This document shows positions 3,207 through 31,447 of a stretch of 32,000 nt of DNA, piece after piece. Both the position numbers and the translations under genes were made by a program. How positions within the stretch are numbered: the first letter of the stretch is position 1; each line of letters opens with the position of its first letter. Under the pieces are notes generated by a model, which was not told the DNA's origin, did no database searches, and saw nothing but the letters and a program-made list of their open reading frames with translations. This DNA comes from Candidatus Pelagibacter ubique HTCC1062 (GTDB taxonomy: Bacteria > Pseudomonadota > Alphaproteobacteria > Pelagibacterales > Pelagibacteraceae), in NCBI RefSeq assembly GCF_000012345.1, contig NC_007205.1:1260001-1292000 (forward strand). Reading direction: 5' to 3'.

Positions 3207-3227
3207 CAAATTGTTAATTTAGTTAAA

Positions 3228-4664: not shown

Positions 4665-4678
4665 TTCTAAAAATTATA

Positions 4679-7083: not shown

Positions 7084-7164
7084 CAATGAATAAAATTTCA
7101 AGTTGAACCCATTTTAGTCACTCTATAACTATTATTATTAATTGAAAATTGATGAGATACGTTT

Positions 7165-8373
7165 GTGAGAAATGTCCTAAAAAATACAATTAGGAAAAAA
7201 ATTAATTTAAGTAAAAAAAAATTAATTGAACAACCCTTAAAAATTTTAAAAAAGATTAATATAGAAAAATTAACAAAATTCACATCATTTTCTCTAATAG
7301 AAAAATACAATAATTTCAAAGAAAGAGCCAAACAAAAAGAACTGCATAGAATTAAATTAATAAAAGAAGAAAGAATTAAAGAATTAAAAAAAGAAAAGTT
7401 AGAACAAGAAAAACAAAAAAATGAAGAAATAAGGTTAATTAAACAAAATGAATTAAATCTAATAAAGGAAGAAAAACAAAGAATAGCTAATGAAGAAAAA
7501 CTGAAAGAAAAAATTATAAAACAACAGCAACAGATTGAAAGAAAAAAAATTAAACTTGAATCTCAAAGAATTAAAGCTGAAGAGCAAAAACTAAAAGATG
7601 AAGAAGAGGAAAAAGTAAGACAAGATGATTTAAAAATAAAAGAAGAAAAACTAAAATTAGAATTTTTTGAAAAGCAAAGAATAAGACAAGAGCAACAAAA
7701 AGCTAAAATTGAAAATGATAAATTAATGGCTCTTGAGAAACAAAAAGCCCGTGAAGCTAAACAGAAAATAAAAGATGAAGAAGAAAGATTAAAAAATATT
7801 GAGATTGATAAACAAAAAAAAAATATGCAAAAGTTAATTGAAGAAGAACATAAATTAAATTATCAAAAACAAAAACTTGAAGAAATTGAACAAAGTATCA
7901 AAAAAATTGAAATTGAAAGAATAAGAGAAAAAGAAATAAAAATATTAAAAGAAGCTGATGAGTTAAGAGAAAAAGAAAAACAACTTAGACTAAAAGAACA
8001 ATTAGAAATAGAGGAGCTTAACGAATTAAGATTAAATGAACTCAATCAAAGAAAAATCCAGGAAGAATTACAACTAAAAGAAGAAAAAATAAGATTAGAA
8101 AATTTAAGAGAACAAAAAATAATTCAAGCTAGAATTCTTGAAGAAAAAAGAATTAAAGATGAAGAAGAGAGAATAAAAGAGTGGGAAAGGAAATTTGATG
8201 AGGAGCAAATAGCAAAAGAAGAAGAATTGATTAAGAAGTTTAATGACCAATTAATTAAAGAAAAAGAACAAAGTGAAAAGATAATAGAATTTAAAAAAGA
8301 AGAAGTAATAGAAGAAAAAAAAGAAGAAATATTAGAAAACGAGGTAAAGAAAGAAGAAGATGATAGATATTAG
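7165..8373 (+). CDS. Lys/Glu-rich, low-complexity, predicted all-helical protein of unknown function
   Basis: A 402-codon open frame in an AT-rich genome where random frames close quickly. The coding strand is strongly purine-rich. The product has no Gly, no Cys, one Pro and one Trp, with no TM segment or signal peptide. The only canonical start is the GTG at 7165, because the frame opens at 7156 after a TGA. Confidence 0.6.
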   Translation: MRNVLKNTIRKKINLSKKKLIEQPLKILKKINIEKLTKFTSFSLIEKYNNFKERAKQKELHRIKLIKEERIKELKKEKLEQEKQKNEEIRLIKQNELNLIKEEKQRIANEEKLKEKIIKQQQQIERKKIKLESQRIKAEEQKLKDEEEEKVRQDDLKIKEEKLKLEFFEKQRIRQEQQKAKIENDKLMALEKQKAREAKQKIKDEEERLKNIEIDKQKKNMQKLIEEEHKLNYQKQKLEEIEQSIKKIEIERIREKEIKILKEADELREKEKQLRLKEQLEIEELNELRLNELNQRKIQEELQLKEEKIRLENLREQKIIQARILEEKRIKDEEERIKEWERKFDEEQIAKEEELIKKFNDQLIKEKEQSEKIIEFKKEEVIEEKKEEILENEVKKEEDDRY

Positions 8374-10648: not shown

Positions 10649-11503
10649 TTACCTATTAATTCCTCTTAGTCTTTCAGACCTTCTTCTTAAAAGTTCTGCA
10701 CTAACAAGAATTAATGTGGACATTATAATTAAACAAGTTGCCACTGCCATTATTGTTGGGCTTAGCTGTTCCCTTAGACCAACCCACATTTGAATTGGAA
10801 TAGTAGTGTTTTCAAGTCCTGCTAAGAATAACACAACAACAACTTCATCAAATGAAGTTACAAAGGCAAATAATGCACCAGAAATAACACCAGGTAAAAT
10901 TAATGGTAATGTTATTTTCATAAAAGTATTAACTGGATTACTCCCCAAACTTGATGCAGCACGTGTTACACTATGATCAAAACCTGTTAAAGTTGCTGTA
11001 ACTGTAATAACTACAAACGGTGTACCCAAAATAATATGAGATAAAATTATTCCTGTATGTGTTGCAGCTAAACCTACTTTTGCCATAAAGAAGAATATTG
11101 CTGTTCCTGAGATAATTAATGGCACAATCATTGGAGATATTAATAAAGCCATGAACGCTGCTTTATATGGCATATGCCTACTACTTAACCCTAGAGCAGC
11201 TACCGTTCCAAGTACTGTAGATCCAATTGTAGCAAAGAAAGCTATTATTAAACTGTTTTTTGTCGCAAGTCCCCAAGGATTTTTAGTCCCATAGATCATG
11301 TCTTCGTACCATCTTAATGAAAATGCGTCTGGGTCAAGGGCTATCATTCCCTTGGAAAAGTGAATGTATTGTTCTGCATTAAATGAAAGTGGTAAAATTA
11401 CAAATAGCGGTGCTATTAAAAAGAAAAATACCAACCCACAAATTGTTAAATAAGTATAATGCCAAATTCTATAATTCCAGGATGTGTAAGTTGGTAATGC
11501 CAT
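10649..11503 (-). CDS. ABC transporter permease, PotC/PotI-like
   Basis: 284 aa and six hydrophobic segments. The EAA-type loop is TRAASSLGSNPVNTFMKITLPLILPG. Confidence 0.85.
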   Translation of the reverse strand: MALPTYTSWNYRIWHYTYLTICGLVFFFLIAPLFVILPLSFNAEQYIHFSKGMIALDPDAFSLRWYEDMIYGTKNPWGLATKNSLIIAFFATIGSTVLGTVAALGLSSRHMPYKAAFMALLISPMIVPLIISGTAIFFFMAKVGLAATHTGIILSHIILGTPFVVITVTATLTGFDHSVTRAASSLGSNPVNTFMKITLPLILPGVISGALFAFVTSFDEVVVVLFLAGLENTTIPIQMWVGLREQLSPTIMAVATCLIIMSTLILVSAELLRRRSERLRGINR

Positions 11504-11506
11504 AAT

Positions 11507-12754
11507 TTATCCTAGTTTAATATTATCAATTCCCACTAATTTATTATAGATCCAGTAGATTGTTAACACTCCAACTAACAGCATAGAACCTAATGCTGCA
11601 GCAAACGACCAATCTAAAGAACTCTTCATATGATACGCAATCGTATTACTAATCAATGATCCACTCGCTCCACCAACTAATGCTGGAGTGATATAGTAAC
11701 CTATAGCTAAAATAAAAACTAATAAACAGCCTGCACCAATTCCTGGAATTGTTAATGGAAAATAAATTTGTCTAAATGCAGTAAATGGAGTTCCACCTAA
11801 TGATTTTCCAGCTCTCATTAAACTTGGAGATATTGTTTTCATCACACTGTAAAGTGGCAAAACCATAAAAGGTAATAAAATTTGTGTCATTGCAACAAAA
11901 GTGCCAACAACATTATACATTAACTCAGGTCTATTATCATCAGCAGCCCAACCTAGCCAAACAATTAGATCGTTTATAGGGCCCTGTTGTTGAAGTAAAA
12001 CCATCCAGCTAGAAGTTCTAACTAATAATGATGTCCAAAAGGGCAACAACACACATATCATCAATAAATTACTATATTTCATTGGTAGTGTGGCCAATAA
12101 ATGTGAAATTGGGTAAGCAAGCAAAAAGCAGAATACAGTTACCCAAAATGCAACTTTTATAGTTCTTAACCAGAGGATTTTATGAATTCTCCTGTCTTCA
12201 TCTTGTTGAATAATATTTCTGTCTTGATCAAATTTTAAATCAAGACCTTTTAGATATTTTGCATAAGACCAATTTGGAGCAGTATTCTTTAAAGCAATCC
12301 AATAATCCACGTTTCTCCATATTTTATGGGTTGCCATAAATTGTTCTTTATAATTAGCTTTTTCAAATTTTTTAATTTTTCTATTTGTTTTTTTTAATCC
12401 ACTACTAAAACCAGATTTTTCATAGTTTAATCTCTGATATAATTTTCCAGCTTCCTTGTTTATAGCCAATGGATAGAAATCTTTATAAAACGCCTCATAA
12501 GTTGCTTCATCAGGCAATTCTTTTCCATCCCATTTTTCTAAAGCAGCAAATGTGTTAGGTAATTTTTGTGTGATCATACGATCATCTACACTTCTAAATA
12601 GCATGTCTCCTATTGGAAATATGTATGTAATTATAAGGAATAAAAATAACGGACCTACAAGCATTAAAGCCTTTAGCTTATTTTTTCTCTCAGCTTTTTT
12701 TAGGCTTATCTCTAGAGGTATCCCGTCTGATGATAATATTTTTTCTGTACTCAT
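11507..12754 (-). CDS. ABC transporter permease, PotB/PotH-like, with a large hydrophilic insertion after TM1
   Basis: 415 aa. The EAA loop is MRAGKSLGGTPFTAFRQIYFPLTIPG. About 135 hydrophilic residues lie between the first and second hydrophobic segments. Classical PotB proteins are roughly 130 aa shorter. Confidence 0.8.
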   Translation of the reverse strand: MSTEKILSSDGIPLEISLKKAERKNKLKALMLVGPLFLFLIITYIFPIGDMLFRSVDDRMITQKLPNTFAALEKWDGKELPDEATYEAFYKDFYPLAINKEAGKLYQRLNYEKSGFSSGLKKTNRKIKKFEKANYKEQFMATHKIWRNVDYWIALKNTAPNWSYAKYLKGLDLKFDQDRNIIQQDEDRRIHKILWLRTIKVAFWVTVFCFLLAYPISHLLATLPMKYSNLLMICVLLPFWTSLLVRTSSWMVLLQQQGPINDLIVWLGWAADDNRPELMYNVVGTFVAMTQILLPFMVLPLYSVMKTISPSLMRAGKSLGGTPFTAFRQIYFPLTIPGIGAGCLLVFILAIGYYITPALVGGASGSLISNTIAYHMKSSLDWSFAAALGSMLLVGVLTIYWIYNKLVGIDNIKLG

Positions 12755-12768
12755 ATTTAAAATTTTTT

Positions 12769-12800
12769 AAAAAAAAAGGGCGGTTATTTTATAACCGCCC
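12769..12800 (-). terminator. Intrinsic terminator or attenuator just downstream of the binding-protein gene and upstream of the permease genes
   Basis: Perfect 10-bp GC-containing stem GGGCGGTTAT / ATAACCGCCC (12778-12800) with a 3-nt loop. On the minus strand it is followed by a run of 9 T (A-run 12769-12777 on plus). Confidence 0.7.
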
Positions 12801-12838
12801 TAATATTTTATAACAAAAACTTAATCTATAAAACTAAA

Positions 12839-13960
12839 TTATAGACCAGCTTTCATTGCTTCCCATTTTTCACCGATTTCATCTTGGTTATCTGCCCAGA
12901 AATCAGGGTTCATAAGAATGTATCTTTTTGTGTTAGCAGGTGCTGTTGGCATATGTGGTACCATACTTGTTTTACCATCTTTAAACCAAGGCTCTCCAGC
13001 TTCCATAACAGCAATTGAAGATTTTCTCCAAGGTGCGTATGCAATATACTTAGCACTTCCAGCTAAACCTTCTGAGCTAGTCATTTCTCTAAGTACTTTC
13101 ATAGCGCTACCGTCAGCATAACCTGGACCATCTTTAACTAATGCAAAATATTCATAGTCAAGAATTTGTCCATCCCATACTTGTACAAGTGGAGTTCCTT
13201 CCATTTGCGCATTAAAGAATCTACCGTTCCAACCAGTTGCCATTACTACTTCACCATTAGCTAGTAGTTCTGGTGGTTGAGCTCCAGCATTCCAGAATAC
13301 ACATCCACCATTTGGATCTGTACAAAGTGCTTTAAGCTTGTTCATAGCTCTATCAATACCGCCGTCAGCATCAAGTTTTCTGTAAGTTAAGTCAGAACCT
13401 TTACCAGGGTTTACACCGTCTGCAGTGATAGCAATCTCTAAGTTAGACATTGCACCTTTGTAAATTGCTCTTTTACCAGGGAAGTTTTTAGTATCAAAAA
13501 AGTCTTTCAATGAGTTAGGCTTTTTAGCACCGATTGTTGCATCGTTATAAGCATAGTTCCAAGAGTACAGAATGTTTCCAACTGCACATTTTGAAGGCAT
13601 GCTTGTAAAGAAGTCCTGACTTGCAGGTGTTCCATCTGGAGCAGGTGCAAAGTCTTTATCAAAATCGAATTCATGGAAAATTCCTTCGTCACATCCAACG
13701 ATAGTGTCTTTTGCGTAAACATCGATGATGTCCCAAGTGATTTTTCCAGCTTCTTTTTGAGCTTTAATTTCTGATAATCCACCAGTGTAGTCTACCCAGT
13801 TTACAGGTATACCTAATTTAGCAGCAGTAGGATCACCATACCCTAATTTTTGACTTTCAGTATAAGCACCACCCCAAGACACTACAGTAACTGCAAATGC
13901 TGAAGTCGTGATAGAAAGTACAAAAGATAGAGCAAGTAATAATTTACTTAATTTTTTCAT
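12839..13960 (-). CDS. Periplasmic substrate-binding protein of an ABC importer (family 1, PotD/PotF-like)
   Basis: 373 aa with the signal peptide MKKLSKLLLALSFVLSITTSAFA. Size and composition fit PotD/PotF-like binding proteins. It has a strong SD (AGGAGAG) and is visibly richer in G/C than its neighbours. Confidence 0.8.
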   Translation of the reverse strand: MKKLSKLLLALSFVLSITTSAFAVTVVSWGGAYTESQKLGYGDPTAAKLGIPVNWVDYTGGLSEIKAQKEAGKITWDIIDVYAKDTIVGCDEGIFHEFDFDKDFAPAPDGTPASQDFFTSMPSKCAVGNILYSWNYAYNDATIGAKKPNSLKDFFDTKNFPGKRAIYKGAMSNLEIAITADGVNPGKGSDLTYRKLDADGGIDRAMNKLKALCTDPNGGCVFWNAGAQPPELLANGEVVMATGWNGRFFNAQMEGTPLVQVWDGQILDYEYFALVKDGPGYADGSAMKVLREMTSSEGLAGSAKYIAYAPWRKSSIAVMEAGEPWFKDGKTSMVPHMPTAPANTKRYILMNPDFWADNQDEIGEKWEAMKAGL

Positions 13961-14094
13961 TTTCTCTCCTATTTAACGTTAACGTTTGTTATTTTATAAA
14001 GTGAAAGTAAAACAATATAGGATACTTTAGTCAACAGGCAATTATGGCTAATTTGCCTTTATTTTATTTATATTTTATTAGGATAGTTTTTAAA

Positions 14095-15183
14095 TTATTT
14101 TGGATCTAAGGCTCTACAGTCAATACTATTCCAGCCTATATCTAGTACATTACCCTTTTTAAGGTCTAATCTTGCAGTACTATTTGGTACTTTAAGGATA
14201 AAATCTTTATTACCTAGTAAGTCAACTCTAAGTCTTGTGTGATCGCCGTGATAAATTATTTCTTCTATTTTTCCTTTATGATTATTATCCATCTTATCTG
14301 AAGGATCTATAATTGCTCTTTCGGGTCTTAGTGAAACTTTAGTCTTATCCCCTTTTGCTTTAACAGCAACTGGATTTGCTAAAATTTCTGTGCCATTTTC
14401 TAATTTAACTTTACATTTATCTCCTGAAATATCTAAAACTTGACCTGAAAATTTATTATTTTCTCCAATGAACTCAGCAACAAACGAATTAACTGGTTTT
14501 TCATACAATTCATCAGGACTTGATAGTTGCTGAACTTTACCATCATTGAAAACTGCAATACGGTTTGACATTGTTAATGCTTCCGTTTGATCGTGTGTAA
14601 CATACACAACTGTTACACCAATACTTTCGTGAATATGTTTAATTTCATATTGCATGCTTTCTCTTAAATTTTTATCTAATGCTCCAAGTGGTTCATCCAT
14701 TAATACCACTTGTGGATCAAAAACTAATGATCTTGCAACAGCAACACGCTGTTGTTGTCCACCTGATAATTGCATCGGCATTCTTGCTTCAAAACCATGA
14801 AGTGAAACCATGGATAAAGCTTTATCTATTTTTTTATCAGCTTCATCTTTTGGAATTTTTCTAACTCTTAATGGAAAAGCTAAATTTTCATAAACAGTCA
14901 TGTGTGGAAATAAAGCATAGTTCTGGAATACCATTCCTATTCCTCTTTTGTGAGGTGGAATATTTGAAATAACCTTACCATCTAAATAAATTTCTCCATG
15001 AGTTGGTGTTTCAAAACCAGCCAGCATCATAAGACAAGTTGTTTTACCAGAACCAGAGGGTCCTAGCATAGTTACAAATTCACCTTCTTCAATGTCTAGA
15101 TTTAATCCTTTAACGACCAATACTTTGCCATCATAGCTCTTGTCTACATTGTCAAATTTTACAAATTCTTTGTTTTTAGTCAT
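14095..15183 (-). CDS. ABC transporter ATP-binding protein, PotA-like
   Basis: 362 aa with Walker A GPSGSGKTT, signature LSGGQQQRVAVAR and Walker B VLMDEPLGALD. It carries a C-terminal TOBE-like regulatory domain. Confidence 0.9.
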   Translation of the reverse strand: MTKNKEFVKFDNVDKSYDGKVLVVKGLNLDIEEGEFVTMLGPSGSGKTTCLMMLAGFETPTHGEIYLDGKVISNIPPHKRGIGMVFQNYALFPHMTVYENLAFPLRVRKIPKDEADKKIDKALSMVSLHGFEARMPMQLSGGQQQRVAVARSLVFDPQVVLMDEPLGALDKNLRESMQYEIKHIHESIGVTVVYVTHDQTEALTMSNRIAVFNDGKVQQLSSPDELYEKPVNSFVAEFIGENNKFSGQVLDISGDKCKVKLENGTEILANPVAVKAKGDKTKVSLRPERAIIDPSDKMDNNHKGKIEEIIYHGDHTRLRVDLLGNKDFILKVPNSTARLDLKKGNVLDIGWNSIDCRALDPK

Positions 15184-15241
15184 ATTTTCTAAATGGATTT
15201 AAAACATTTGTGAGCTTATTTATCAAGTTTTTTTATTTTAA

Positions 15242-16408
15242 TTATTTAATGTGAAGATCTTTTGAAAAATTACAAAATAGCTCACTTCCTTGATCCGTAA
15301 CTCTTATTGCTTCAGAAGCTTCAACTCCCCAATTTCCAAATTGCATAACAGCAATCATATGAAAAGTAATATTTGGCTCTAAAATTGTCATATCTCCTTT
15401 TGATATATTTAAAGTGTGTTCCCCCCAATCAGGTGGGTAACCAATTCCGATAGAATATCCAGTACGAGAGGTTTTCTCTATACCGTACTTATCTAGAACC
15501 TTCCAAAATGCCTGAGCCACATCATCTGCAGTTTTTCCTGGTTTGATAGCATCAATACCTGCCTGCAAGGCTTCGTTTGTTTTTTTCATTGTATCAATTT
15601 TAAGTTGGTCAGCTTTTCCAAGAAGCACTGTTCTTGCCATAGGACAATGGTATTTTTTATGAGAACCTGAAAGTTCAATAATTGTTGCTTCGCCCTCTAC
15701 AAATTTATCTTCTGTCCATGTTAAATGAGATGCTGATGTACCTTTGCCAGTTGGAAGCATTGGAACAATAGACGCATAATCTCCACCAAACTCAGGAGTT
15801 CCCTTTATTAGAGCCGCTTGTATTTCTGATACAGCATCACATTGTCTTACCCCAGGATTGATTACTTCAAAAGCTTTCTTCATTCCTGTTTGAACTATTA
15901 ATGATGCAGCTTTCATTAAATTAATTTCAGTATCTGATTTTACAACTCTAACCCAGTTGACTAATCTTTCACAATCTGAAATTTTTGCATTGGGTAAACC
16001 TGATTTTATTTTTTCATAACAGTAGGCAGTAAAATAATGACTGTCCATTTCAACTCCAATAGAAAGTTTATCCCATTTTCTTTCTTTAATAATATCTGTT
16101 AAAGCTTCATAAGGGTGAAGCGGCCAATTATGAATATATTTTTCACCATACTTTATAATATTTTCATCTTTCAAATAAGTTTTAATATATGCTCCACCAG
16201 CATCTTGGTCTCTAACAAAACATAAGGGCTCATCTGCATTAATATGAACTATGACACATTGGGCATAATAGAATGACCAAGCATCATAACCTGTTAAATA
16301 ATTCATGTTCGATGGATCCTGAGAGATTAATACATCAATGCCTTTATCTTGCATTGATTTTTGAACCTTCTTTAATCTATTTTTGTATTCTTCTTTTGTA
16401 AAATTCAT
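15242..16408 (-). CDS. M24-family (creatinase/Xaa-Pro peptidase fold) hydrolase, ectoine hydrolase DoeA/EutD-like
   Basis: 388 aa with the blocks DPSNMNYLTGYDAWSFY, VNWVRVVKSDTEI, EFGGDYASIVPMLPTG...HLTW, YHCPMARTVLLGK and SRTGYSIGIGYPPDWGEHT. As I recall them, these resemble DoeA/EutD much more than classical creatinase. This rests on memory and was not searched. Confidence 0.65.
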   Translation of the reverse strand: MNFTKEEYKNRLKKVQKSMQDKGIDVLISQDPSNMNYLTGYDAWSFYYAQCVIVHINADEPLCFVRDQDAGGAYIKTYLKDENIIKYGEKYIHNWPLHPYEALTDIIKERKWDKLSIGVEMDSHYFTAYCYEKIKSGLPNAKISDCERLVNWVRVVKSDTEINLMKAASLIVQTGMKKAFEVINPGVRQCDAVSEIQAALIKGTPEFGGDYASIVPMLPTGKGTSASHLTWTEDKFVEGEATIIELSGSHKKYHCPMARTVLLGKADQLKIDTMKKTNEALQAGIDAIKPGKTADDVAQAFWKVLDKYGIEKTSRTGYSIGIGYPPDWGEHTLNISKGDMTILEPNITFHMIAVMQFGNWGVEASEAIRVTDQGSELFCNFSKDLHIK

Positions 16409-17155
16409 TTAGTTAAATTTAAATAGTTTTCCAAAACCTTCAATACTATTTTTATAGCCAATAGCATTTAGACTTTCCCAAATTAATGTTTGATTGCTAG
16501 ATAAAATGACTTTATTCATTTTTTTTTCAAGCTTATCGATTATCGATAATACTGGTAATGCCGTACAAGACACAAATAATGCCTCACTATCTTCTAAATT
16601 AATTTTTGACAAAACTTCAAATAAATATTCTTCATCTACTTTTCCAATATCTAAATCAGACTCAATATCAAAATATGTTAATCCATCAACTGCAATATTT
16701 TCTTTATTAAAATAATTTATAACTGAGTCGTTTATACTTTTTGTATAAGGGGTAAAAACCGATACTTTGTTAATGTTAAAAGCTTTTAAAGCCTTAATAG
16801 CAGATGTAATTGGGGTGGTAACTTTTGCTTCAGGCTTGGCTAACTTCACATTTTTTTCAATCACATCATAACCTGCTGCAATTGTTCCTGATGTACATCC
16901 ATAAGCAACACAATCTATTTTTTGATCTGGTAAAATATCTTTAGTGACATCGGTAATATCATCTGCCATTTTAGCTAACGTTTCGTTGGTCAAGGGATTG
17001 TAACAATGTATTCGATTAACATACAGATCTACATCTCTTCCATAGATCACATTATTAAAATCCTTTTCAATTCTAAAATCGCTACCAAGCGTTATAAGAC
17101 CAATTCTTGGGTTCGATTTTGAAATATATTTTGGCTCAACCTTGTTTAATTTCAT
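16409..17155 (-). CDS. Asp/Glu/hydantoin-racemase superfamily protein (EutA / maleate isomerase / arylmalonate decarboxylase-like)
   Basis: 248 aa. Two Cys-containing motifs, AYGCTSGT and VSCTALPV, sit at the spacing expected for two-Cys racemase/isomerase active sites. There is no gap to the M24 gene (16408/16409). Confidence 0.6.
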   Translation of the reverse strand: MKLNKVEPKYISKSNPRIGLITLGSDFRIEKDFNNVIYGRDVDLYVNRIHCYNPLTNETLAKMADDITDVTKDILPDQKIDCVAYGCTSGTIAAGYDVIEKNVKLAKPEAKVTTPITSAIKALKAFNINKVSVFTPYTKSINDSVINYFNKENIAVDGLTYFDIESDLDIGKVDEEYLFEVLSKINLEDSEALFVSCTALPVLSIIDKLEKKMNKVILSSNQTLIWESLNAIGYKNSIEGFGKLFKFN

Positions 17156-17322
17156 AAATTACCTGTAATATTTGGATTAAATATATATTGAATAAGGAGT
17201 CTAGTTAAAATAAAGTTTAACAAAAGCGTACATAACTCGTCGTTACCTAAGGTTTAAACGGTACTAAAGAATACGAAAGTGGGATCAGTCGTCTTTAAAT
17301 TTAACTATTTAAGGGGGTTTGA

Positions 17323-18489
17323 ATGAAATTTGGATATTTTTGTAACACTACTAATTGGAATCATAAACCATACAATCAACTATTAAAAGAAACCCAAGAG
17401 ATCACTATTTACTGTGATGAAAATAATTGGGACTCTATTTGGTATACCGAACATCACTTTAATCATGAAGGAATGGAATCTTGTACAAATCCTTTAATGA
17501 TGGGTGTGGATGCGGCCGCCAGAACAAAACAAATAAGAATAGGTCAAGCTTGTAATGTAATTACATTTCATAATCCTATCCGTCTAGCTGAAGACATTGC
17601 GTTGCTAGATCAATTGTCTGGAGGAAGAGTTGATGTTGGTATTGGAAGAGGAATTTACGGAAGAGAAGCTATCAATATGAATAAAGAAGCTGACTTAAAA
17701 GATCAGGCAAAAAATTTTAGGTTGTTTGATGAGTCATTAACCATAATGAAAAAAGCTTGGACAGAAGAATTTTTTAGTCACCAGGGTGAGTTTTACACTT
17801 ATCCATCACCAAATTTTACTTGGCAACATGACATGAGTCCACCTAGTGAAAAGTTTTTAGATACAAAAACAAATGAAATTAAAAAAATTAGCGTTGTACC
17901 AAAACCAAAACAAGAGCCACATCCGCCAATATGGCAAGTTGTGGATGGTGCACGTTCAATTGAATGGGCGGCACAGAATGGCTTAAATACAATAATGTGG
18001 ATACCTACAGTTAAAGCATTAAAGAAAAGGTTTGAAATTTATAGAGATGCAAAATCAAAAACTGAAAATAGAGAAGTGCCGCTTGGAGAAGGTATATCTT
18101 TAGTTAGAGATATGTTTGTTGCTGAAACTATGGAAGAAGCTGAAAAAATGGCTGGTGAGCATATTATCAATTATATGAAATGGGTTTGTCATTGGAGAGG
18201 TTTGGGTAATCATATGGATCCAGGAGAAGAACTACCAGAAACAAAACATAAATTAGACTTACTTAATTATGATTTTTTACATAAAAGAAATTTATTATTT
18301 GGAACACCAGAATATGTTGTTAATAAAATAAATGAATTAAAATCAGAATTAAATTTACAAAATCTTCAAGTTTGGTCTAATTTTCCTGGAATAGATCATG
18401 AGGCTTGCATGAGAAGTATAAAACTGTTTAATGATGAGGTTATACCAAAGATTAATTTAGACAATTCAAGTATCGAAAAGGCAAGTTAA
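17323..18489 (+). CDS. Luciferase-like (LLM class) flavin-dependent monooxygenase/oxidoreductase
   Basis: 388 aa with the LLM pattern W.TEHHF........NP..........T..IR.G......T.HNP.R.AED.A.LD.LSGGR...G.GRG. It is preceded by a strong SD (AAGGGGG). Confidence 0.8.
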   Translation: MKFGYFCNTTNWNHKPYNQLLKETQEITIYCDENNWDSIWYTEHHFNHEGMESCTNPLMMGVDAAARTKQIRIGQACNVITFHNPIRLAEDIALLDQLSGGRVDVGIGRGIYGREAINMNKEADLKDQAKNFRLFDESLTIMKKAWTEEFFSHQGEFYTYPSPNFTWQHDMSPPSEKFLDTKTNEIKKISVVPKPKQEPHPPIWQVVDGARSIEWAAQNGLNTIMWIPTVKALKKRFEIYRDAKSKTENREVPLGEGISLVRDMFVAETMEEAEKMAGEHIINYMKWVCHWRGLGNHMDPGEELPETKHKLDLLNYDFLHKRNLLFGTPEYVVNKINELKSELNLQNLQVWSNFPGIDHEACMRSIKLFNDEVIPKINLDNSSIEKAS

Positions 18490-19076
18490 TGAAATTAGAG
18501 CTTAGAAAGTTTACAAAATTTGTAGATAAAACTTTTATCGAAGGTGGTAAGGAAGCTAAAGAGCCTGTTTTGATGGTTTCTGTTGCAGCTGTATTTAAAA
18601 ATCCATGGCATGGAAAAGGCTTTGTTGAAGATTTAAAACCAATTATTTTAGATTTAGCACCTAAATTAGGTGATATTTTAGTTCCAGAGTTAATAAAGGA
18701 GATTGGATCACCTGAAAAAATTTTGGCGTATGGAAAAGCTGGTACGGTCGGACTTGATGGTGAAATTGAGCATGCCTCAGCATTTATTCACACTTTAAGA
18801 TTTGGAAATAAATTTAGAGATGCGGTTGGGGGAACATCTTATTTAAGCTTTACCAATACCAGAGGTCCAGCTGGATCCAAAATGTCTATTCCAATGATGC
18901 ATAAAACAGATTCAGGTCTAAGGCCTTATTATTTAACTCATGAATTTACGATTCATGATGCTCCTTTTGATGATGAAATTGTTATAGCAATTGGTGGAGC
19001 CTCCACAGGTAGAGCTCATGCTAGAACGGGTGATCGTTATCAAGACATGAAAGAAATGGGAATAGATCCCAAATAA
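18489..19076 (+). CDS. AA_synth / DUF1185 'amino acid synthesis' family protein of unknown biochemical function
   Basis: 195 aa. Length and blocks (VAAV.KNPW.G.....L.P..........L......YGKAG.VG..GE.EH..A..H.........S.P..HK...G) match my recollection of this family. The start overlaps the LLM stop (TAATG at 18487-18491). Confidence 0.6.
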   Translation: MKLELRKFTKFVDKTFIEGGKEAKEPVLMVSVAAVFKNPWHGKGFVEDLKPIILDLAPKLGDILVPELIKEIGSPEKILAYGKAGTVGLDGEIEHASAFIHTLRFGNKFRDAVGGTSYLSFTNTRGPAGSKMSIPMMHKTDSGLRPYYLTHEFTIHDAPFDDEIVIAIGGASTGRAHARTGDRYQDMKEMGIDPK

Positions 19077-19080
19077 ATTA

Positions 19081-19863
19081 ATGTTTCAAAATTTTGATCC
19101 AAATCAAAATTATTATTCATTTAATGATAAAAATACAGTTCCTGTAGTTTTTATTCATGGTGTCGGACTTGATCAGCGGATGTGGGAACCTCAAATTGAA
19201 GCTTTCAAAGAATATTCATTAATTACATATGATTTATTAGGGCATGGAAAAACTATTCTCAATAAAGAAGATGTAACATTAAATGATTTTTCAAACCAAC
19301 TAAAATCGATATTAGAATATTTAAAAGTGGATAAGATTAATCTTGTTGGTTTTTCTTTAGGTTCTTTAATTGCACTAAATTTTGCCTCTAAATTTCAAGA
19401 CAAACTAAACAGCCTTGTTGTAATGGGTACAACATATAAAAGAACTTCAGAACAAAGGTCTTTGGTTATAGAAAGATTTGAACAGGCTAAATTAAACAAA
19501 CCTATTTCAAAACAAGCCCTAAAAAGATGGTTTACCAATCAATACTTAAATGACCATCCAGAAACTTATAATCAATTTATAAAAATTTTGACAAAAAATA
19601 AAAAAGATCATTTAAATTTTTTAAAAGCTTACAAATTATTTGCTTATCATGAGGACAATACAGATATAATTAAAAATATTAAAACTAGGACTCTTGTGAT
19701 GACAGGTTCAAATGATTCAGGATCTACTGTCGAGATGTCAAAATCTTTATGTGAAGATTTAATAAACTCAAGTTTTATTGAGATAAATAATGGAAAACAT
19801 CTTTGTAGTATAGAGTGTGCAGATGATGTTAATATCAATCTTAAAAATTTTATTAATAGATAA
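19081..19863 (+). CDS. Alpha/beta-fold hydrolase (enol-lactonase/esterase-like)
   Basis: 260 aa with the oxyanion-hole region VVFIHGVG and the nucleophile elbow GFSLGS. The C-terminal GKHLC holds a candidate catalytic His. Confidence 0.8.
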   Translation: MFQNFDPNQNYYSFNDKNTVPVVFIHGVGLDQRMWEPQIEAFKEYSLITYDLLGHGKTILNKEDVTLNDFSNQLKSILEYLKVDKINLVGFSLGSLIALNFASKFQDKLNSLVVMGTTYKRTSEQRSLVIERFEQAKLNKPISKQALKRWFTNQYLNDHPETYNQFIKILTKNKKDHLNFLKAYKLFAYHEDNTDIIKNIKTRTLVMTGSNDSGSTVEMSKSLCEDLINSSFIEINNGKHLCSIECADDVNINLKNFINR

Positions 19864-21345
19864 ATGACAAAAATTCAAAACTTTAAAATGTATATAAATG
19901 GACTGTGGGTTAATTCAGAGTCTGGAAAAACAATAGAAACTGTAAACCCAGAAAACAACGAAGTTTGGGCAACTGTTCCTGAAGCTAACGAGAAGGATGT
20001 AGATAAAGCAGTTAAGGCCGCACAAAATGCTTTTGAAAAATCTTGGTCAAATTTACACCCAAGAGAAAGAGCTAAATACTTAAGGTCTCTTGCAGATCAA
20101 TTAAGACAAAATGCTGAACATCTTGGAACTATAGAAACAATTGATACAGGAAAAATTTTTAGAGAAACAAAAACACAAGCTAACTATATTGCTGAGTATT
20201 ACGATTATTTTGCAGGACTAGCCGATAAAGTTGAAGGAACAGTTGTGCCAATTGATAAGCCAGACATGCAAGTAACAACTACTAGAATACCTATTGGTGT
20301 TGTTGCTGCGATAATTCCTTGGAACTCCCAAATGTTATTAACTGCAGTAAAATTAGCACCCGCATTAGCAATGGGTAATACAGTTGTAATAAAAGCTTCT
20401 GAACTAGCGCCTGTAACATTATTAGAATTTGCAAAACTAGTTGAAAAATCAGGTATACCTAAAGGTGTTGTAAATATAATTACTGGTCTAGGTGAGCCTT
20501 GTGGTAAAGCTCTAACTACACATGACCTTGTAGAAAGAATTGCTTTTACAGGTGGTCCTGAAACCGCAAAACATATTGTTAAAAATTCAGCAGAAAATTT
20601 ATCGCAAGTAAGCTTAGAACTTGGTGGAAAAAGTCCTGTTGTCGTATTCGATGATGCCGAGCAAGAGAACGCACTAAATGGAATTACTGCTGGTATCTTT
20701 GGTGCAAGTGGTCAAAGCTGTATTGCAGGATCACGACTTTACATCCAATCTAAAATTTATGATGACTTCTTAAATAAGCTAATAGCCAAGGCTGAAAAAA
20801 TAAAATTAGGAGCTCCTATGGATAATGAAACTCAAATGGGACCTTTAAATAGTTATAAACAACTAGAAAATATAGAAAAAAATATCAAAGCTACAATTGA
20901 GCAAGGTGGAAAAATTAGATGCGGTGGAAAAAGGTCCAATATATCTAGTAAAGCTTATTATTTTCCAGCTACAATTATTGAGTGTGAAAATCATAATTTG
21001 CCTACAGCAGAGAATGAATTATTTGGTCCAGTTTTATCTGTTATGAAATTTGAAACAGAAGAGGATGTGATTAAATTAATGAATGATAATAAATATGGCT
21101 TATCTTCTGGAGTTTATACCTCAAACTTCGGAAGAGGTTTGAGAGTATCAAAAGCAATTAGAGCTGGAATTACTTTTGTAAATACTTATAGGTTAATTTC
21201 ACCCATGGCCCCGTTTGGAGGAATTAAAGATAGTGGATATGGAAAAGAAGCAGGAATTGAGTCAATTAAAGAATACACAAGAATAAAAACCACATGGTTA
21301 AATTCATCGGATAAACCAATGACTGATCCATTTACAATGGGTTAA
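19864..21345 (+). CDS. NAD(P)+-dependent aldehyde dehydrogenase
   Basis: 493 aa with ELGGKSPVVVF, GQSCIAGSR, FTGGPE and PFGGIKDSGYGKE. The start abuts the hydrolase stop (TAAATG). Confidence 0.9.
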   Translation: MTKIQNFKMYINGLWVNSESGKTIETVNPENNEVWATVPEANEKDVDKAVKAAQNAFEKSWSNLHPRERAKYLRSLADQLRQNAEHLGTIETIDTGKIFRETKTQANYIAEYYDYFAGLADKVEGTVVPIDKPDMQVTTTRIPIGVVAAIIPWNSQMLLTAVKLAPALAMGNTVVIKASELAPVTLLEFAKLVEKSGIPKGVVNIITGLGEPCGKALTTHDLVERIAFTGGPETAKHIVKNSAENLSQVSLELGGKSPVVVFDDAEQENALNGITAGIFGASGQSCIAGSRLYIQSKIYDDFLNKLIAKAEKIKLGAPMDNETQMGPLNSYKQLENIEKNIKATIEQGGKIRCGGKRSNISSKAYYFPATIIECENHNLPTAENELFGPVLSVMKFETEEDVIKLMNDNKYGLSSGVYTSNFGRGLRVSKAIRAGITFVNTYRLISPMAPFGGIKDSGYGKEAGIESIKEYTRIKTTWLNSSDKPMTDPFTMG

Positions 21346-21349
21346 TTTT

Positions 21350-22207
21350 TTGACTGTCAGACATTATTTTTTAGTTTTATTTATCATGTTTCTTTTTGGT
21401 AGTTCTTATCCAATTAATAAACTTGCATTAAACACATCCCTCACCCCTGTATTGGCAGCCTCATTGAGAATGTTTATACTTTTTGTTTGTCTTGTTCCTT
21501 TTTGTAAATTTAAAATCCCAAACAAAAAATACTATCTGCCTTTAGCAGGTTTTTCTTTTTCAATGGGCTTTGGTGTTTTTATTTTTTTAAATTTATCTCT
21601 GCAAAAAGCAACTATGGTTGCTCCTATAATTATTGGAGCTCAACTAGCAATACCCTTTGCAATTCTGGCAAGCTCTTTATTTTTAGGTGAAAAGGTAACT
21701 CCTAAAATGTGGGTATTAATATTTATTTCTTTTTTTGGAATTTTTTTAATTGGTTATGATCCAAATTTAAAAAGTGAAATTTTTGCAATTTTTCTTTGTG
21801 CAATTTCTGCTTTTTTCTATGGTGTTGCGAATGTGTTTTCTAGATATATTAAAGATATAGATGTTAAATTAACCAACACAGTTATGGGCTTTACTGGTTT
21901 TATACTGCTTTTTCTTTTTTCCATTTTTTTTGAAGGAAACACAGTTTATCAATTACTAAATATTGATTTTTATACTTGGCTTTTATTACTCCATAATGGG
22001 GTGATGGTTTCTGTAATTGCACACACTTCATTATTTTATTTATATAAATTTTATTCAGTAAATAAAATTATGCCCTTTTATTCTTTATTTCCAGTATTTG
22101 GCCTAATCCTAACGTTCTTTATATTCGGAGAAATCCCAACTCTACTTAGTGCGATTGGTGGTTTAATTATAATATTTTCTGTATATAGGCTTCAAAAAAT
22201 TAGATAA
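21350..22207 (+). CDS. DMT-superfamily (EamA-like) transporter
   Basis: 285 aa and about ten hydrophobic segments in two EamA-like halves. The track start is a TTG; an in-frame ATG 12 codons downstream is an alternative. Confidence 0.75.
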   Translation: MTVRHYFLVLFIMFLFGSSYPINKLALNTSLTPVLAASLRMFILFVCLVPFCKFKIPNKKYYLPLAGFSFSMGFGVFIFLNLSLQKATMVAPIIIGAQLAIPFAILASSLFLGEKVTPKMWVLIFISFFGIFLIGYDPNLKSEIFAIFLCAISAFFYGVANVFSRYIKDIDVKLTNTVMGFTGFILLFLFSIFFEGNTVYQLLNIDFYTWLLLLHNGVMVSVIAHTSLFYLYKFYSVNKIMPFYSLFPVFGLILTFFIFGEIPTLLSAIGGLIIIFSVYRLQKIR

Positions 22208-22282: not shown

Positions 22283-23467
22283 ATGAAAAAACTATTTATT
22301 GCTGCTTTTATATTCGTTTCTACTTTTACAACGAATACATTCGCAGAAGTTAAAATGGGAATCATTTTAGGATTTACTGGTCCTATTGAATCTCTAACAC
22401 CAGCTATGGCTGCATCTGCAGAGCTTGCATTTAAAGAAGCTTCTGACTCAGGTTCACTATTAGGTGGAGAAACTATTTCAGTAGTAAGAGCAGATTCAAC
22501 TTGTGTTGATTCAGCAGCAGCAACAGCAGCAGCAGAAGGTGTTATTGCACAAGGTGTTGCAGCAATTATGGGTGCTGACTGTTCAGGTGTAACTGGTGCT
22601 ATTGCATCTAATGTTGCTGTACCAAATGGTGTAGTAATGATTTCACCTTCAGCAACTTCTCCAGGACTTACAGCTTTAGATGATAAAGGCTTCTTTTTTA
22701 GAACAGCCCCATCTGATGCTAGAGGTGGTCAGATTTTAGCTGATATTACTAAAGACAGAAAAATCAAAAGTGTAGCAATTACTTACACTAACAATGACTA
22801 TGGAAAAGGTTTGGCTGATGTTTATGAAGCAGCTGTAAAAGCTCATGGTATTAAAGTAACAACTGTATCTGCTCACGAAGATGGTAAAGCAGATTACTCA
22901 TCTGAAGTAGCAACTTTAGCTTCAGCAGGTGGTGATGCCGTAGCAGTAATTGGTTACCTAGACCAAGGTGGAAAAGGAATTATTCAAGGTTCTTTAGACT
23001 CTGGTGCATTTGATAAATTTATTTTATCTGATGGTATGATCGGTGACTCATTAACTGAAGCTTTTGGAAAAGATTTAAATAAATCTTTTGGTTCAATTCC
23101 TGGTTCAATGAATAAAAAAACAGCAGGTACTTTTGCCTCTGTTGCTAAAGCAGCGGGTATCGACTCATCTGGACCTTACACTGGTGAATCTTATGATGCA
23201 GCAGCTTTAATCGTTCTTGCGATGCAAGCAGGTGGATCAGCAGATAGAGCTTCTATTGCAAAAAATGTAATGGATGTTGCTAATGCCCCTGGTACTAAGA
23301 TTTACCCAGGTGAACTTAAAAAAGGTTTAGACTTACTAGCTAAAGGTAAAAAAGTTGACTACGAAGGTGCAACTGGTGTTACTTTTACTAACGTAGGTGA
23401 AGCTGAAGGTTCTTTCCTAGAAAAAGAAATCAAAGGTGGAAAATTCAAAAATAAAAAACAAAGATAA
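22283..23467 (+). CDS. livJ: Periplasmic binding protein of a LIV-type (branched-chain/general amino acid) ABC transporter
   Basis: 394 aa with the signal peptide MKKLFIAAFIFVSTFTTNTFA and the type I PBP pattern G...G.TGP.......ISP.ATSP.LT....FFFRT.PSD..QG. It is Ala/Gly-rich with a higher-GC composition, and has an SD (AGAGGA) and its own terminator. Confidence 0.85.
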   Translation: MKKLFIAAFIFVSTFTTNTFAEVKMGIILGFTGPIESLTPAMAASAELAFKEASDSGSLLGGETISVVRADSTCVDSAAATAAAEGVIAQGVAAIMGADCSGVTGAIASNVAVPNGVVMISPSATSPGLTALDDKGFFFRTAPSDARGGQILADITKDRKIKSVAITYTNNDYGKGLADVYEAAVKAHGIKVTTVSAHEDGKADYSSEVATLASAGGDAVAVIGYLDQGGKGIIQGSLDSGAFDKFILSDGMIGDSLTEAFGKDLNKSFGSIPGSMNKKTAGTFASVAKAAGIDSSGPYTGESYDAAALIVLAMQAGGSADRASIAKNVMDVANAPGTKIYPGELKKGLDLLAKGKKVDYEGATGVTFTNVGEAEGSFLEKEIKGGKFKNKKQR

Positions 23468-23487
23468 TTAAAATCTTAATTTTAAAA

Positions 23488-23521
23488 CCCTCAGCAGTGA
23501 AAATTGCTGGGGGTTTTTTTT
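23488..23521 (+). terminator. Rho-independent terminator after the LivJ-like gene
   Basis: CCCTCAGCA (23488-23496) pairs with TGCTGGGGG (23505-23513): a 9-bp stem including one G-U, with an 8-nt loop, followed by 8 T (23514-23521). Confidence 0.8.
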
Positions 23522-29412: not shown

Positions 29413-30180
29413 TTATTTATTTAATCTTCTATGTATACTGTTGAGTGTCTTTTCTAAAGATTTATAAAAACCTGCTCTGCTTAATTCTTTAACTCCTTGT
29501 TCATTCAATCCTTTAGGTGTTTGAGACTCTTTTACTAAAAATTTTAAATCTTTTTTAGAGTTTACAACTGCATCTTCTGATAATGCTAAAAATAAAGATG
29601 TTATATATTTTTGTGCATTATTTCGTTTAACTCCTCTTTTCACTAACCAGTCTGTCATTACTCTTAGTAATTCATAAAAGGGTGCCATCATTCCAGAGGT
29701 TGACCAAAAATTGATTGAAGATTTTTCATTTTTAATTTCAACGGTTGTGCCAATTTTATTAAAAAAATCTTTAACTTTTTTATTGGGTGGACAAATGGGT
29801 ACTGGTCCTTTTTTTAAAGATATAGGAGGTAATGGTATCGCTCTTATAATTTTTGCTTTAACTTTGATTGCTTTTTTAAGTTGAGCTAAAGTAATTGTTG
29901 ATATGAAACTAATTACAGTTTGATTTGATCTAAACTTTAAATTTTTAATAATTTTTTCACCCACTGCTGGAGTTACTGATAAAAATATCCAATCACAAGA
30001 ATTAATAATTTCCTGGTTATCTTTACTAACAGTTATCTTTTTAAACTTTTTTTTTAAAATACTAGATGTAGATTTATTTCTCTCAGAGATGATTATTTTG
30101 TTATACGAAATACTGGAACTGCAAATACCAGTGATAACGGCAGACGTAATTTTACCTGTTCCTATAAAGCCTAATTTCAT
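29413..30180 (-). CDS. Divergent pyrroline-5-carboxylate reductase (ProC)-like NAD(P)H oxidoreductase
   Basis: 255 aa. It has the N-terminal dinucleotide-binding motif FIGTGKIT and a C-terminal TPKGLNEQG that resembles the ProC SPGGTTEAG dimerisation/active-site motif. It is clearly diverged. Confidence 0.55.
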   Translation of the reverse strand: MKLGFIGTGKITSAVITGICSSSISYNKIIISERNKSTSSILKKKFKKITVSKDNQEIINSCDWIFLSVTPAVGEKIIKNLKFRSNQTVISFISTITLAQLKKAIKVKAKIIRAIPLPPISLKKGPVPICPPNKKVKDFFNKIGTTVEIKNEKSSINFWSTSGMMAPFYELLRVMTDWLVKRGVKRNNAQKYITSLFLALSEDAVVNSKKDLKFLVKESQTPKGLNEQGVKELSRAGFYKSLEKTLNSIHRRLNK

Positions 30181-30212
30181 AAATATAGTTACTTTATAGT
30201 GATATTAGTGAA

Positions 30213-31124
30213 TTAATTAATAAAAAAAGAACCTCTAATTCTCAATAGTTCTCTGCTTAAATCTTTATTTTCTTTGAAAGGTTTTCTTCCGTGTAACCAA
30301 AAATAATTATTAGCCACAATGGTTGATCCAGGTACTAATTTAGTGATTACTTTGTTCTTACTCTCCTCTAAAGCATCTGATAATTTTTGTAAGAAAATTC
30401 CTTGATCCATATTTTTTGGTTCAGGGAATTGATCAATATAAGAAATATTTGGCTTACCGTTATCATCTGTTGTGAAAACTGGATGTTCAACTTTATATTC
30501 TATATTTTTACTTTTAGGAGACCCCCATACAAAATTTTGTTTTCCAATGGGGTCATTGAATAAATCCTCACAATGTTCCCAGTCATCAAGATGCAACATT
30601 GCTGTTTCTCCTCCTTGGACATTTTGTTCTTCAATTTTAGTCATCAAAAGCCAATCTGTGATCTCTTTAACATATGTCCCATCCGTATGAAGATCCATAT
30701 TTGTGTAAGCTTTTCTTAAGTACGAGTCACTTTTATCTTCATGCTTTACAAAAAATCTTGCATAATATTTTCCAGCCATGGCATCATAATTTGGATTACC
30801 AATTAAATAGGCAATTGCTGTTGATAGCTTTACTAAAAAGATATCATTAATTTTTGCACTTACTTTTTTTGGTCCAATTATAAAACAACCTGTTTCTCTA
30901 TCTCTTACTATTGAATTAAGTAATTTGCTTAATTTATTAGAAGTTAAATCATCTAAACTTTTAGCAATAGTAAATCTGGTAAATGGTTTGTACTCTAAGG
31001 CAGTGATATCAAATTTATTGAATGGAAATATTAATTTATCTAAAATTTCATCTTCAATTCTAATGTCAATTATTCTTTTTGAATTTTGATGTTCTGTTAT
31101 TGTTATTCCAGAGATATTTTCCAT
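30213..31124 (-). CDS. csiD: CsiD/GlaH-like Fe(II)/2-oxoglutarate-dependent dioxygenase (glutarate 2-hydroxylase family)
   Basis: 303 aa with long collinear blocks matching E. coli CsiD as I recall it: ALEYKPFTRF..AK.LDDL; NYDAMAGKYYARFFVKHEDKSDSYLR; MDLHTDGTYVKEITDWLLMTKIEEQNVQGGE...LHLDDWEH; YIDQFPEPK; NNYFWLHGR; RELLRIRGSF. The HxD...H iron triad is present. Confidence 0.8.
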   Translation of the reverse strand: MENISGITITEHQNSKRIIDIRIEDEILDKLIFPFNKFDITALEYKPFTRFTIAKSLDDLTSNKLSKLLNSIVRDRETGCFIIGPKKVSAKINDIFLVKLSTAIAYLIGNPNYDAMAGKYYARFFVKHEDKSDSYLRKAYTNMDLHTDGTYVKEITDWLLMTKIEEQNVQGGETAMLHLDDWEHCEDLFNDPIGKQNFVWGSPKSKNIEYKVEHPVFTTDDNGKPNISYIDQFPEPKNMDQGIFLQKLSDALEESKNKVITKLVPGSTIVANNYFWLHGRKPFKENKDLSRELLRIRGSFFIN

Positions 31125-31447
31125 TAGAAATAATTACTTAGTACCGCCATCATGATAGCAGAAATAACAGTAGGATAAACAAAATTTCTTTTAGATATAA
31201 AAAATATAAATAAACAAAATAAAACAACAGTTACTCTACTTAAGTAACTAGCATCAGACAAAACACCTACTGGAAATATAATTGTTCTTGCTATTAATGC
31301 GGCTAGTGTTGAGTAGGCAAGACAATTAAACCATTTAAATAATTTTGAAGTTTCTTTTATTCCTTGTGAAGAAATTGCACCTAAAAACCTTGAAGAGAAA
31401 GTTGCAAGGGACGTGACTAAGATTGCAAGAAATACACTAGTTGACAT
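31124..31447 (-). CDS. azlD: AzlD-like branched-chain amino acid transport protein (small subunit)
   Basis: 107 aa and four hydrophobic segments. It sits immediately downstream of an AzlC-like gene and overlaps it by 11 nt, the canonical AzlCD arrangement. Confidence 0.7.
   Translation of the reverse strand: MSTSVFLAILVTSLATFSSRFLGAISSQGIKETSKLFKWFNCLAYSTLAALIARTIIFPVGVLSDASYLSRVTVVLFCLFIFFISKRNFVYPTVISAIMMAVLSNYF

Follow-up and report, generated by a model that had tools for sequence, protein, structure and literature searches.

Introduction

Among the nitrogen-containing metabolites that phytoplankton release in abundance are trigonelline, an osmolyte of plants and algae, and its isomer homarine. 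In Acinetobacter baylyi ADP1, the tgnABCDEF cluster (Perchat et al. 2018, PNAS) is reportedly responsible for trigonelline catabolism. The pathway reportedly runs from an oxygenase step via an aldehyde dehydrogenase (ALDH) to a hydrolase. TgnF of this pathway is a DUF1185 protein that reportedly stimulates the succinate-semialdehyde dehydrogenase (SSADH) TgnE. The growth of Sinorhizobium meliloti on trigonelline requires the megaplasmid pSymA. For SAR11 bacteria, a route for homarine degradation was first published in 2026 (Ferrer-Gonzalez et al. 2026). The present study concerns a stretch of 32,000 nucleotides, in the following called the window, from the genome of Candidatus Pelagibacter ubique HTCC1062 (contig NC_007205.1, positions 1,260,001 to 1,292,000 of the forward strand). 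Five adjacent genes at window positions 17323-22207 had been singled out in a sequence-only reading as a good candidate for an undescribed catabolic system. Our analysis indicates that four of them form a widely conserved cassette related to the tgn cluster, in which the oxygenase is of a different kind.

Clusters of the tgn type occur on plasmids, namely pSymA of S. meliloti and plasmids of Leisingera and Chimaeribacter, with a constant gene set comprising a GntR regulator, DUF1185, an alpha/beta hydrolase, a flavin reductase, a luciferase-like monooxygenase (LLM) of 345 aa and an ALDH. On pSymA, the cluster lies beside nod genes and is followed by an ABC (ATP-binding cassette) transporter and an SSADH. 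A plasmid of Acinetobacter sp. PK01 shows the order DUF1185-alpha/beta hydrolase-tgnA-tgnB-tgnC-NCS1-...-SSADH. Since tgnA, tgnB and tgnC are named in its RefSeq record, the plasmid cluster can be identified as tgn and the ALDH beside the LLM as TgnC. The TgnA proteins of Acinetobacter and Sinorhizobium are 41% identical, and no counterpart was found in the window.

A conserved four-gene cassette

The block consists of five open reading frames (ORFs):

17323..18489, plus strand: LLM flavin monooxygenase, 388 aa (Pfam Bac_luciferase, E 6e-44, 151 bits)
18489..19076, plus strand: AA_synth/DUF1185 protein, 195 aa, putative TgnF-like helper (PF06684, E 7e-64)
19081..19863, plus strand: alpha/beta-fold hydrolase, 260 aa, TgnD-like (Abhydrolase_1, E 5e-23)
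19864..21345, plus strand: aldehyde dehydrogenase, 493 aa, TgnC clade (Aldedh, E 5e-162)
21350..22207, plus strand: EamA/DMT (drug/metabolite transporter) permease, 285 aa, TTG start (EamA, E 1.5e-24), accessory and outside the conserved core

Direct reading of the sequence confirmed these ORFs as they had been given before, with gaps of -1, 4, 0 and 4 nt and the junctions TAATG (18487-18491) and TAAATG (19861-19866), and the Pfam matches bore out all five family calls, including AA_synth for the 195-aa protein. None of the five proteins reached an NCBIfam cut-off among the models listed for each. Junctions of at most 5 nt occur in about 14 of the 24 same-strand gene pairs in the ORF list of the window. 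Tight spacing is thus normal here, and four tight junctions in a row are weak evidence alone.

Comparison among genomes is more informative. An alignment of the LLM clade was used to scan one genome per GTDB species, and the ORFs of the best 80 loci were labelled by BLAST. Marine metagenomes and Pelagibacteraceae genomes contain close homologues of the LLM in great number; among the LLM clusters at 90% identity, single ones comprise up to 2,852 sequences. Contigs retrieved via one close LLM homologue repeated the order LLM-DUF1185-hydrolase-ALDH without a DMT gene after it. The same order was kept in all 17 other Pelagibacteraceae loci of adequate length, of which only three (L013, L021, L022) have a DMT orthologue (48-53% identical) after the ALDH gene. 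Among the 80 loci, no cassette outside SAR11 is followed by a DMT gene. In the nearest relatives (L008-L010; LLM 94-96% identical), panB/guaA-type genes on the opposite strand come after the cassette.

Outside SAR11, the cassette was found, in Bacillales and Actinomycetota, in 10 of the 12 genomes with an LLM at least 49% identical to that of the window, the cassette-bearing homologues showing 49-58% identity. The gene order is kept in Alteribacillus, Bacillus salipaludis, Sinomonas, Streptomyces (three species), Nocardia, Actinomadura and a metagenome-assembled genome (MAG) of the Actinomycetota, while Sporosarcina has all cassette genes with the hydrolase moved upstream. A Rhodospirillales MAG (LLM 71%) carries the cassette complete except for DUF1185. 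The Stellaceae MAG L029 (LLM 57%) is an exception to the synteny, having the hydrolase but neither ALDH nor DUF1185 adjacent; a 494-aa ORF at this locus encodes an AMP-binding enzyme. No DUF1185 gene was found in any of the loci, roughly 46 in number, whose LLM is under 45% identical.

The synteny across phyla argues for a functional unit and supports four genes, not five. Hence, the unit is a four-gene cassette defined by the LLM clade, and the DMT gene is a local addition. The sequence-only reading had deduced a single unit of five genes from their spacing, with a dedicated DMT permease closing the operon, and had asked for synteny in related genomes. The idea of one functional unit holds, on account of its conservation across phyla and not of the spacing, and the order of four genes is indeed kept, but the fifth gene is variable and the permease can no longer be regarded as a dedicated member.

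Some cassettes contain additional genes. In a SAR11 subgroup (L015:10167-11870; also L014, L017-L022 and L026), the gene of a 567-aa thiamine-diphosphate enzyme separates the LLM gene from that for DUF1185; the enzyme is similar to sulfoacetaldehyde acetyltransferase and acetolactate synthase, under the cut-offs of both. A DAO gene located 5' of the LLM in L015-type loci was considered as a pathway member and discarded, as it is a GlpD-type glycerol-3-phosphate dehydrogenase gene and so probably an unrelated neighbor. The actinobacterial cassettes L034-L039 (Sinomonas, Streptomyces, Nocardia, Actinomadura) apparently have two tandem DUF1185 genes in the interval between LLM and hydrolase, compared to a single one in the remaining cassettes.

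Similarity to Tgn proteins

Three of the four cassette proteins resemble Tgn proteins. The DUF1185 protein matches PF06684 over its full length, scoring 214.9 bits where the cut-off is 27 and spanning profile positions 1-175 of 175. With the proteins at the TgnF position of tgn clusters it shares 54-55% identity, compared to 72% within tgn (Acinetobacter versus Sinorhizobium). A tblastn search of plasmids returned 387 records, mostly rhizobial, with 56-59% identity, and an alignment of 12 sequences from both cassette types contains 48 invariant columns. The solved DUF1185 structures 2qtp and 3byq match the window protein at E 1e-20 to 1e-25 only. The family had been described beforehand as one without established function. 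This was too general, since TgnF belongs to it.

The ALDH is 52-53% identical to annotated TgnC and 34% to the SSADHs of the clusters, compared to 72% for TgnC within tgn. A neighbor-joining tree unites the ALDHs from both types of cassette in a single clade and keeps six other ALDHs outside it. Moreover, the cassette ALDHs and annotated TgnC have in common a C-terminal extension, W.NTSD.P..DPFxM(R/G) (W.NTSD.P..DPFVMR), which is absent from the six other ALDHs. It is encoded at 21289-21345 and found at the same position in L001, L002, L007, L027, L030-L033, L036 and L088; this tail may be a docking or oligomerization element. By identity, clade and tail, sequence comparison assigns the enzyme to the TgnC type.

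For the hydrolase, which shows the nucleophile motif GFSLG in its translation, the identity to TgnD is 27-30%, compared to 51% within tgn. The top matches in a tblastn search of 72,556 plasmids were TgnD genes (E 1e-30 to 1e-36), with annotated PcaD ranking lower, and the taxa of the matches mirror the distribution of the tgn cluster. We infer that the hydrolase is orthologous to TgnD, and by analogy it is proposed to act as a formamide/enamide hydrolase. A function as PcaD lactonase was considered and rejected, the PcaD-like match being under the NCBIfam cut-off. The identities of the C, F and D proteins fall roughly proportionally, from 72, 72 and 51% within tgn to 52, 55 and 30% for the window, as expected for orthologues. 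Among the comparisons with Tgn proteins, it is the LLM that stands out by its sequence as the outlier.

The position of the DUF1185 gene is also of interest. It lies directly 5' of the hydrolase gene in the tgn order F-D-A-B-C as well as in the cassette order B'-F-D-C, where B' denotes the LLM. This shared arrangement suggests that the DUF1185 protein works with the hydrolase or its product, beyond a role with the SSADH alone.

The oxygenase

The LLM is 26% identical to S. meliloti TgnB over the full length and 30% identical to Acinetobacter TgnB over 162 aa, while the two TgnB proteins are 72% identical to each other; with 388 aa compared to 345 aa it is also 43 residues longer. The low identity of 26-30% implies that the LLM is not an orthologue of TgnB. 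Its best plasmid match is an LLM from Peribacillus (34%), and neither Acinetobacter nor rhizobia appear among the best 80 LLM loci. The wider family is small, with 233 representative clusters at E <= 1e-30, and its named members carry generic annotations only. In sequence comparisons, the LLM thus represents a separate, unnamed clade that is found in SAR11, Bacillales and Actinomycetota.

The family assignment agrees with the predicted structure. An AlphaFold2 model built from a 15-sequence alignment (mean pLDDT 88) displays the TIM-barrel fold of LLMs, in line with the PF00296 match. In Foldseek comparisons, the nearest folds were LuxA-type luciferases, RslO1, Atu2307 and 3,6-diketocamphane monooxygenase (TM about 0.75, 20-24% identity), and a sequence search of the PDB with the LLM agrees with these neighbors. 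The identity to 3,6-diketocamphane monooxygenase, LuxA and RslO1 (21-24%) is too low for their substrates to be transferred to the LLM. LuxA and type II Baeyer-Villiger enzymes use free reduced flavin mononucleotide (FMNH2) from a separate, sometimes unlinked, reductase. By analogy, the LLM is proposed to be an FMNH2-dependent ring-opening oxygenase.

Distant homologues of the LLM (38-40% identity) were observed in two alphaproteobacterial MAGs (L043, L045) in the vicinity of another LLM, which shares 41-43% identity with TgnB. Also present at these loci are a flavin reductase, GntR regulators and an ALDH with 49% identity to that of the window, a hint that modular LLM-based heterocycle clusters form a wider set. 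Another locus, L089 from Rhodococcus, was retrieved as a plasmid LLM match and turned out to be an unrelated multi-LLM cluster. It is adjoined by RibBA (L089:11956-13200), and beside the Alteribacillus LLM cluster a dihydroxybutanone phosphate (DHBP) synthase fused to a flavokinase-like domain is encoded (L031:7295-8293). Such riboflavin-pathway genes near LLM clusters may serve as local flavin supply.

Transporters and regulators

The genes accompanying the cassette provide hints regarding its substrate. The Alteribacillus and Sporosarcina cassettes include betaine/carnitine/choline transporters (BCCT), which are 53% identical to each other. NCS1 permeases occur with the cassettes of B. salipaludis and Nocardia, and the one from Bacillus shares 33-35% identity with the NCS1 of tgn clusters. 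GntR regulators are found with both cassette types, that is, with tgn and with the non-SAR11 copies of the window type. In the window itself, two gene groups on the minus strand precede the cassette:

10649..15183, minus strand: PotABCD-type ABC transporter (ATPase, binding protein, two permeases), candidate uptake system
15242..17155, minus strand: DoeA/EutD-like M24 hydrolase and EutA-like protein, divergent neighbors (NCBIfam)

The binding protein of this ABC transporter is 30% identical to that of the S. meliloti tgn cluster (E 6e-36). Taken together, the transporters, the GntR regulators, the ABC binding protein and the TgnC-, TgnD- and TgnF-like enzymes point to a zwitterionic N-heteroaromatic betaine. 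The divergent EutA-like/M24/Pot operon (10649-17155, minus strand) may be functionally linked to the cassette.

Proposed pathway

With moderate confidence, we regard the cassette as a tgn-type variant for the oxidative ring opening of a pyridinium-type betaine. On the same analogy, it would probably permit SAR11 cells to use trigonelline or a close relative. Trigonelline would be the single most likely substrate, at clearly less than an even chance, and a close analogue appears roughly equally probable, given that the oxygenase and TgnB are not orthologous. The individual steps are deduced by analogy with the Tgn chemistry of Perchat et al. (2018) and with the tgnC product name (MFMB dehydrogenase) in the RefSeq record. 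The substrate might enter via the DMT permease, the adjacent Pot-type ABC transporter or a transporter encoded elsewhere. With O2 and FMNH2 from an unlinked reductase, the LLM would then directly cleave the N-heteroaromatic ring and yield an N-formyl enamine with an aldehyde or lactol end, which the TgnC-like ALDH would convert to the carboxylate (diacid). The TgnD-like hydrolase would split off the formyl and amine moieties, with formate, methylamine or ammonia, CO2 and succinate semialdehyde as products, and the TgnF-like DUF1185 protein might help at a late step. The analogy gives the sequence oxygenase, ALDH, hydrolase, and thereby departs from the sequence-only reading, which had placed the hydrolase before the aldehyde oxidation.

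Several observations weigh against this interpretation. The oxygenase sets the substrate, yet it is the protein with only 26-30% identity to its Tgn counterpart, and tgnB is missing from its plasmid matches at E <= 1e-20. The identity of 27-30% between the hydrolase and TgnD is low. No clear SSADH is encoded in the window; its only other ALDH (3228-4664) shows 34% identity to the SSADHs of the clusters and stays below every SSADH cut-off. The literature search yielded no expression or biochemical reports on any cassette member. Finally, among the ORFs of the 32 kb with 90 aa or more, none showed a Flavin_Reduct or FMN_red domain, in agreement with the sequence-only reading, which had recognized no reductase. 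Outside SAR11, however, Flavin_Reduct proteins accompany the cassettes of Nocardia, Sporosarcina and the Rhodospirillales MAG, and an FMN_red protein that of B. salipaludis. Since these cassettes carry a reductase, its absence from the SAR11 cassette is most plausibly a matter of gene loss or of sharing in a streamlined genome and not of the use of another cofactor.

It might also be possible, and we put this forward more tentatively, that an unrecognized LLM clade has replaced TgnB in the tgn-like cassette of SAR11, halophilic Bacillales and many Actinomycetota. The cassette would then represent a second, undescribed ring-cleavage route for trigonelline or another abundant pyridinium or aromatic betaine, which SAR11 would operate without a dedicated reductase and in which DUF1185 would act with the hydrolase or the ALDH, not with the SSADH only, as the ALDH tail and the invariable neighborhood of DUF1185 and hydrolase would suggest.

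The sequence-only reading had expected an undescribed system and named homologues of the whole block in a characterized pathway as the finding that would speak against it. The outcome is divided. No report of a trigonelline-type route in SAR11 and nothing relevant on an LLM in SAR11 was found in the literature searched; within that scope, the system is not described for these bacteria. On the other hand, tgn is a characterized relative with three of the four enzymes alike: DUF1185 protein, hydrolase and ALDH are Tgn-like, and the oxygenase belongs to a separate clade.

Alternative explanations

The strongest competitor to the tgn-type reading is that the cassette degrades another class of compounds, such as an ectoine-like cyclic amidine or a different saturated N-heterocycle, or else a cyclic ketone or lactone attacked by Baeyer-Villiger chemistry. 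The TgnC-, TgnD- and TgnF-like proteins would then perform an analogous oxidation and hydrolysis, with the DoeA-like and EutA-like proteins and the ABC transporter in the same route. Such a function is compatible with an LLM that is not a TgnB orthologue and whose nearest solved folds include type II Baeyer-Villiger monooxygenases. It also gains some support from the genes flanking the cassette: the EutA-like and M24 pair lies beside it in five SAR11 loci (L008-L010, L013, L023) and co-directionally 5' of it in the Actinomycetota MAG (L030:306-2251). Moreover, BCCT transporters also carry ectoine. However, most cassette loci lack the pair, among them all those of Bacillales and the majority in SAR11, and both of its proteins miss the ectoine-family cut-offs (DoeA/EutD-like, 461 bits compared to 613; EutA-like, 196 bits compared to 318). 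Furthermore, three of the four cassette proteins fall into Tgn-specific and not generic subfamilies. We consider another substrate class unlikely, though worth keeping in mind.

An ordinary orthologue of the known tgn cluster appears improbable. The families are the same, and both DUF1185 protein and ALDH exceed 50% identity to their counterparts in tgn. Against this stand the low identity and greater length of the LLM relative to TgnB, the lack of TgnA and TgnE in the window and the different gene order. In addition, the LLM clade has a distribution of its own that, among its best 80 loci, includes neither Acinetobacter nor rhizobia.

That the genes are unrelated neighbors packed together by genome streamlining would fit the short junctions that are the norm in the window, but it is very improbable, because Alphaproteobacteria, Bacillales and Actinomycetota share the same order, which is confined to loci whose LLM reaches 49% identity or more. 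Least probable of all is an identity with the SAR11 homarine operon homABCDER: homarine is an isomer of trigonelline and the operon is reported from Pelagibacter genomes, but, as described, HomA is a protein that binds flavin adenine dinucleotide (FAD), encoded by a gene of about 700 nt, homB spans about 1,700 nt, HomC is peptidase-like and neither an LLM nor DUF1185 is mentioned, and the window contains no adjacent pair of a FAD-binding homA of about 700 nt and a homB of about 1,700 nt, so that the identity was excluded on the described gene sizes and families, not on Hom sequences.

Genomic surroundings

The tgn-type cassette is bordered by the following elements:

17156..17322, no strand: divergent intergenic region of 167 nt, 5' of the LLM gene
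22283..23467, plus strand: LivK-type periplasmic binding protein, 394 aa (Peripla_BP_6, E 2e-30)
23484..23517, plus strand: terminator-like hairpin (stem of 15 bp, then a T run), the first strong terminator 3' of the block

The intergenic region includes a Shine-Dalgarno sequence, AAGGGGG, just 5' of the LLM ATG. A promoter scan gave a signal that at best equaled that of shuffled sequence, and no Rfam family matched anywhere in the window. The terminator scan detected no terminator-like site between the DMT gene and the LivK-type gene, which has its own strong Shine-Dalgarno sequence and whose orthologue (79-88% identical) lies 3' of the cassette in most SAR11 loci. Possibly, the LivK-type gene is co-transcribed with the block.

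Further genes in the window fall into small groups. Genes for an arginase-family hydrolase, a 478-aa ALDH and an M20 peptidase lie together at 2016-5644. On the minus strand at 29413-31994, a CsiD-family dioxygenase (Pfam E 1e-146), a gene resembling pyrroline-5-carboxylate (P5C) reductase and AzlC/AzlD transporter genes are located, which looks like another small catabolic module. With the group at 2016-5644 and the other modules, the window looks like an island for nitrogen-rich small-molecule catabolism. Another ORF, at 7165-8373 (plus strand), encodes 402 aa without a Pfam family and is extremely Lys/Glu-rich and coiled-coil-like; its composition explains the anomaly at 7001-8000 (GC 0.215, AT skew 0.43).

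If the tgn-type interpretation is true, the cassette would provide a gene marker for the turnover of pyridinium betaines by the most abundant marine heterotroph, which is of interest for marine carbon and nitrogen cycling. The LLM would define a new substrate-determining clade capable of direct N-heteroaromatic ring cleavage, and the DUF1185 gene would offer a second genetic context for working out the function of DUF1185/TgnF. Cultured carriers of the cassette exist, namely Pelagibacter sp. HIMB1748, Bacillus salipaludis PS3-36, Alteribacillus sp. YIM 98480, Sporosarcina sp. P13, Nocardia and Streptomyces, hence the prediction is directly testable.

Comparison with known systems

The Rut pathway shares some features with the cassette, as RutA is an FMNH2-dependent LLM that opens an N-heterocycle, and an alpha/beta hydrolase (RutD) and a flavin reductase (RutF) belong to its operon. 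However, the window LLM matches no listed RutA model, the RutD match reaches 75 bits compared to a cut-off of 238, equivalents of RutB, RutC and RutE are not in the window, and Rut contains neither DUF1185 nor an ALDH. With sub-threshold matches only, Rut was rejected as the identity of the block. Type II Baeyer-Villiger monooxygenases, LuxA and RslO1 are the nearest solved structures, but they act on ketone or aldehyde substrates and occur in unrelated gene contexts. The hom operon (Ferrer-Gonzalez et al. 2026) resembles the proposed function in that it serves the catabolism of an aromatic betaine from phytoplankton in SAR11 and includes an ALDH-like enzyme; it differs in protein families and gene sizes, and its product is N-methylglutamate.

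The closest system remains tgn. Both have an LLM oxygenase, DUF1185, an alpha/beta hydrolase and an ALDH, and GntR regulators, NCS1 transporters and flavin reductases are found with the non-SAR11 copies of the cassette as well. The differences are that the cassette oxygenase comes from another LLM clade, that the SAR11 cassette is without a TgnA-type two-domain reductase or any linked reductase, that the block has no SSADH (TgnE), that the order is LLM-F-D-C instead of F-D-A-B-C, and that the carriers are SAR11, Bacillales and Actinomycetota. Collectively, the block is a tgn-like cassette with a different oxygenase and not categorically new.

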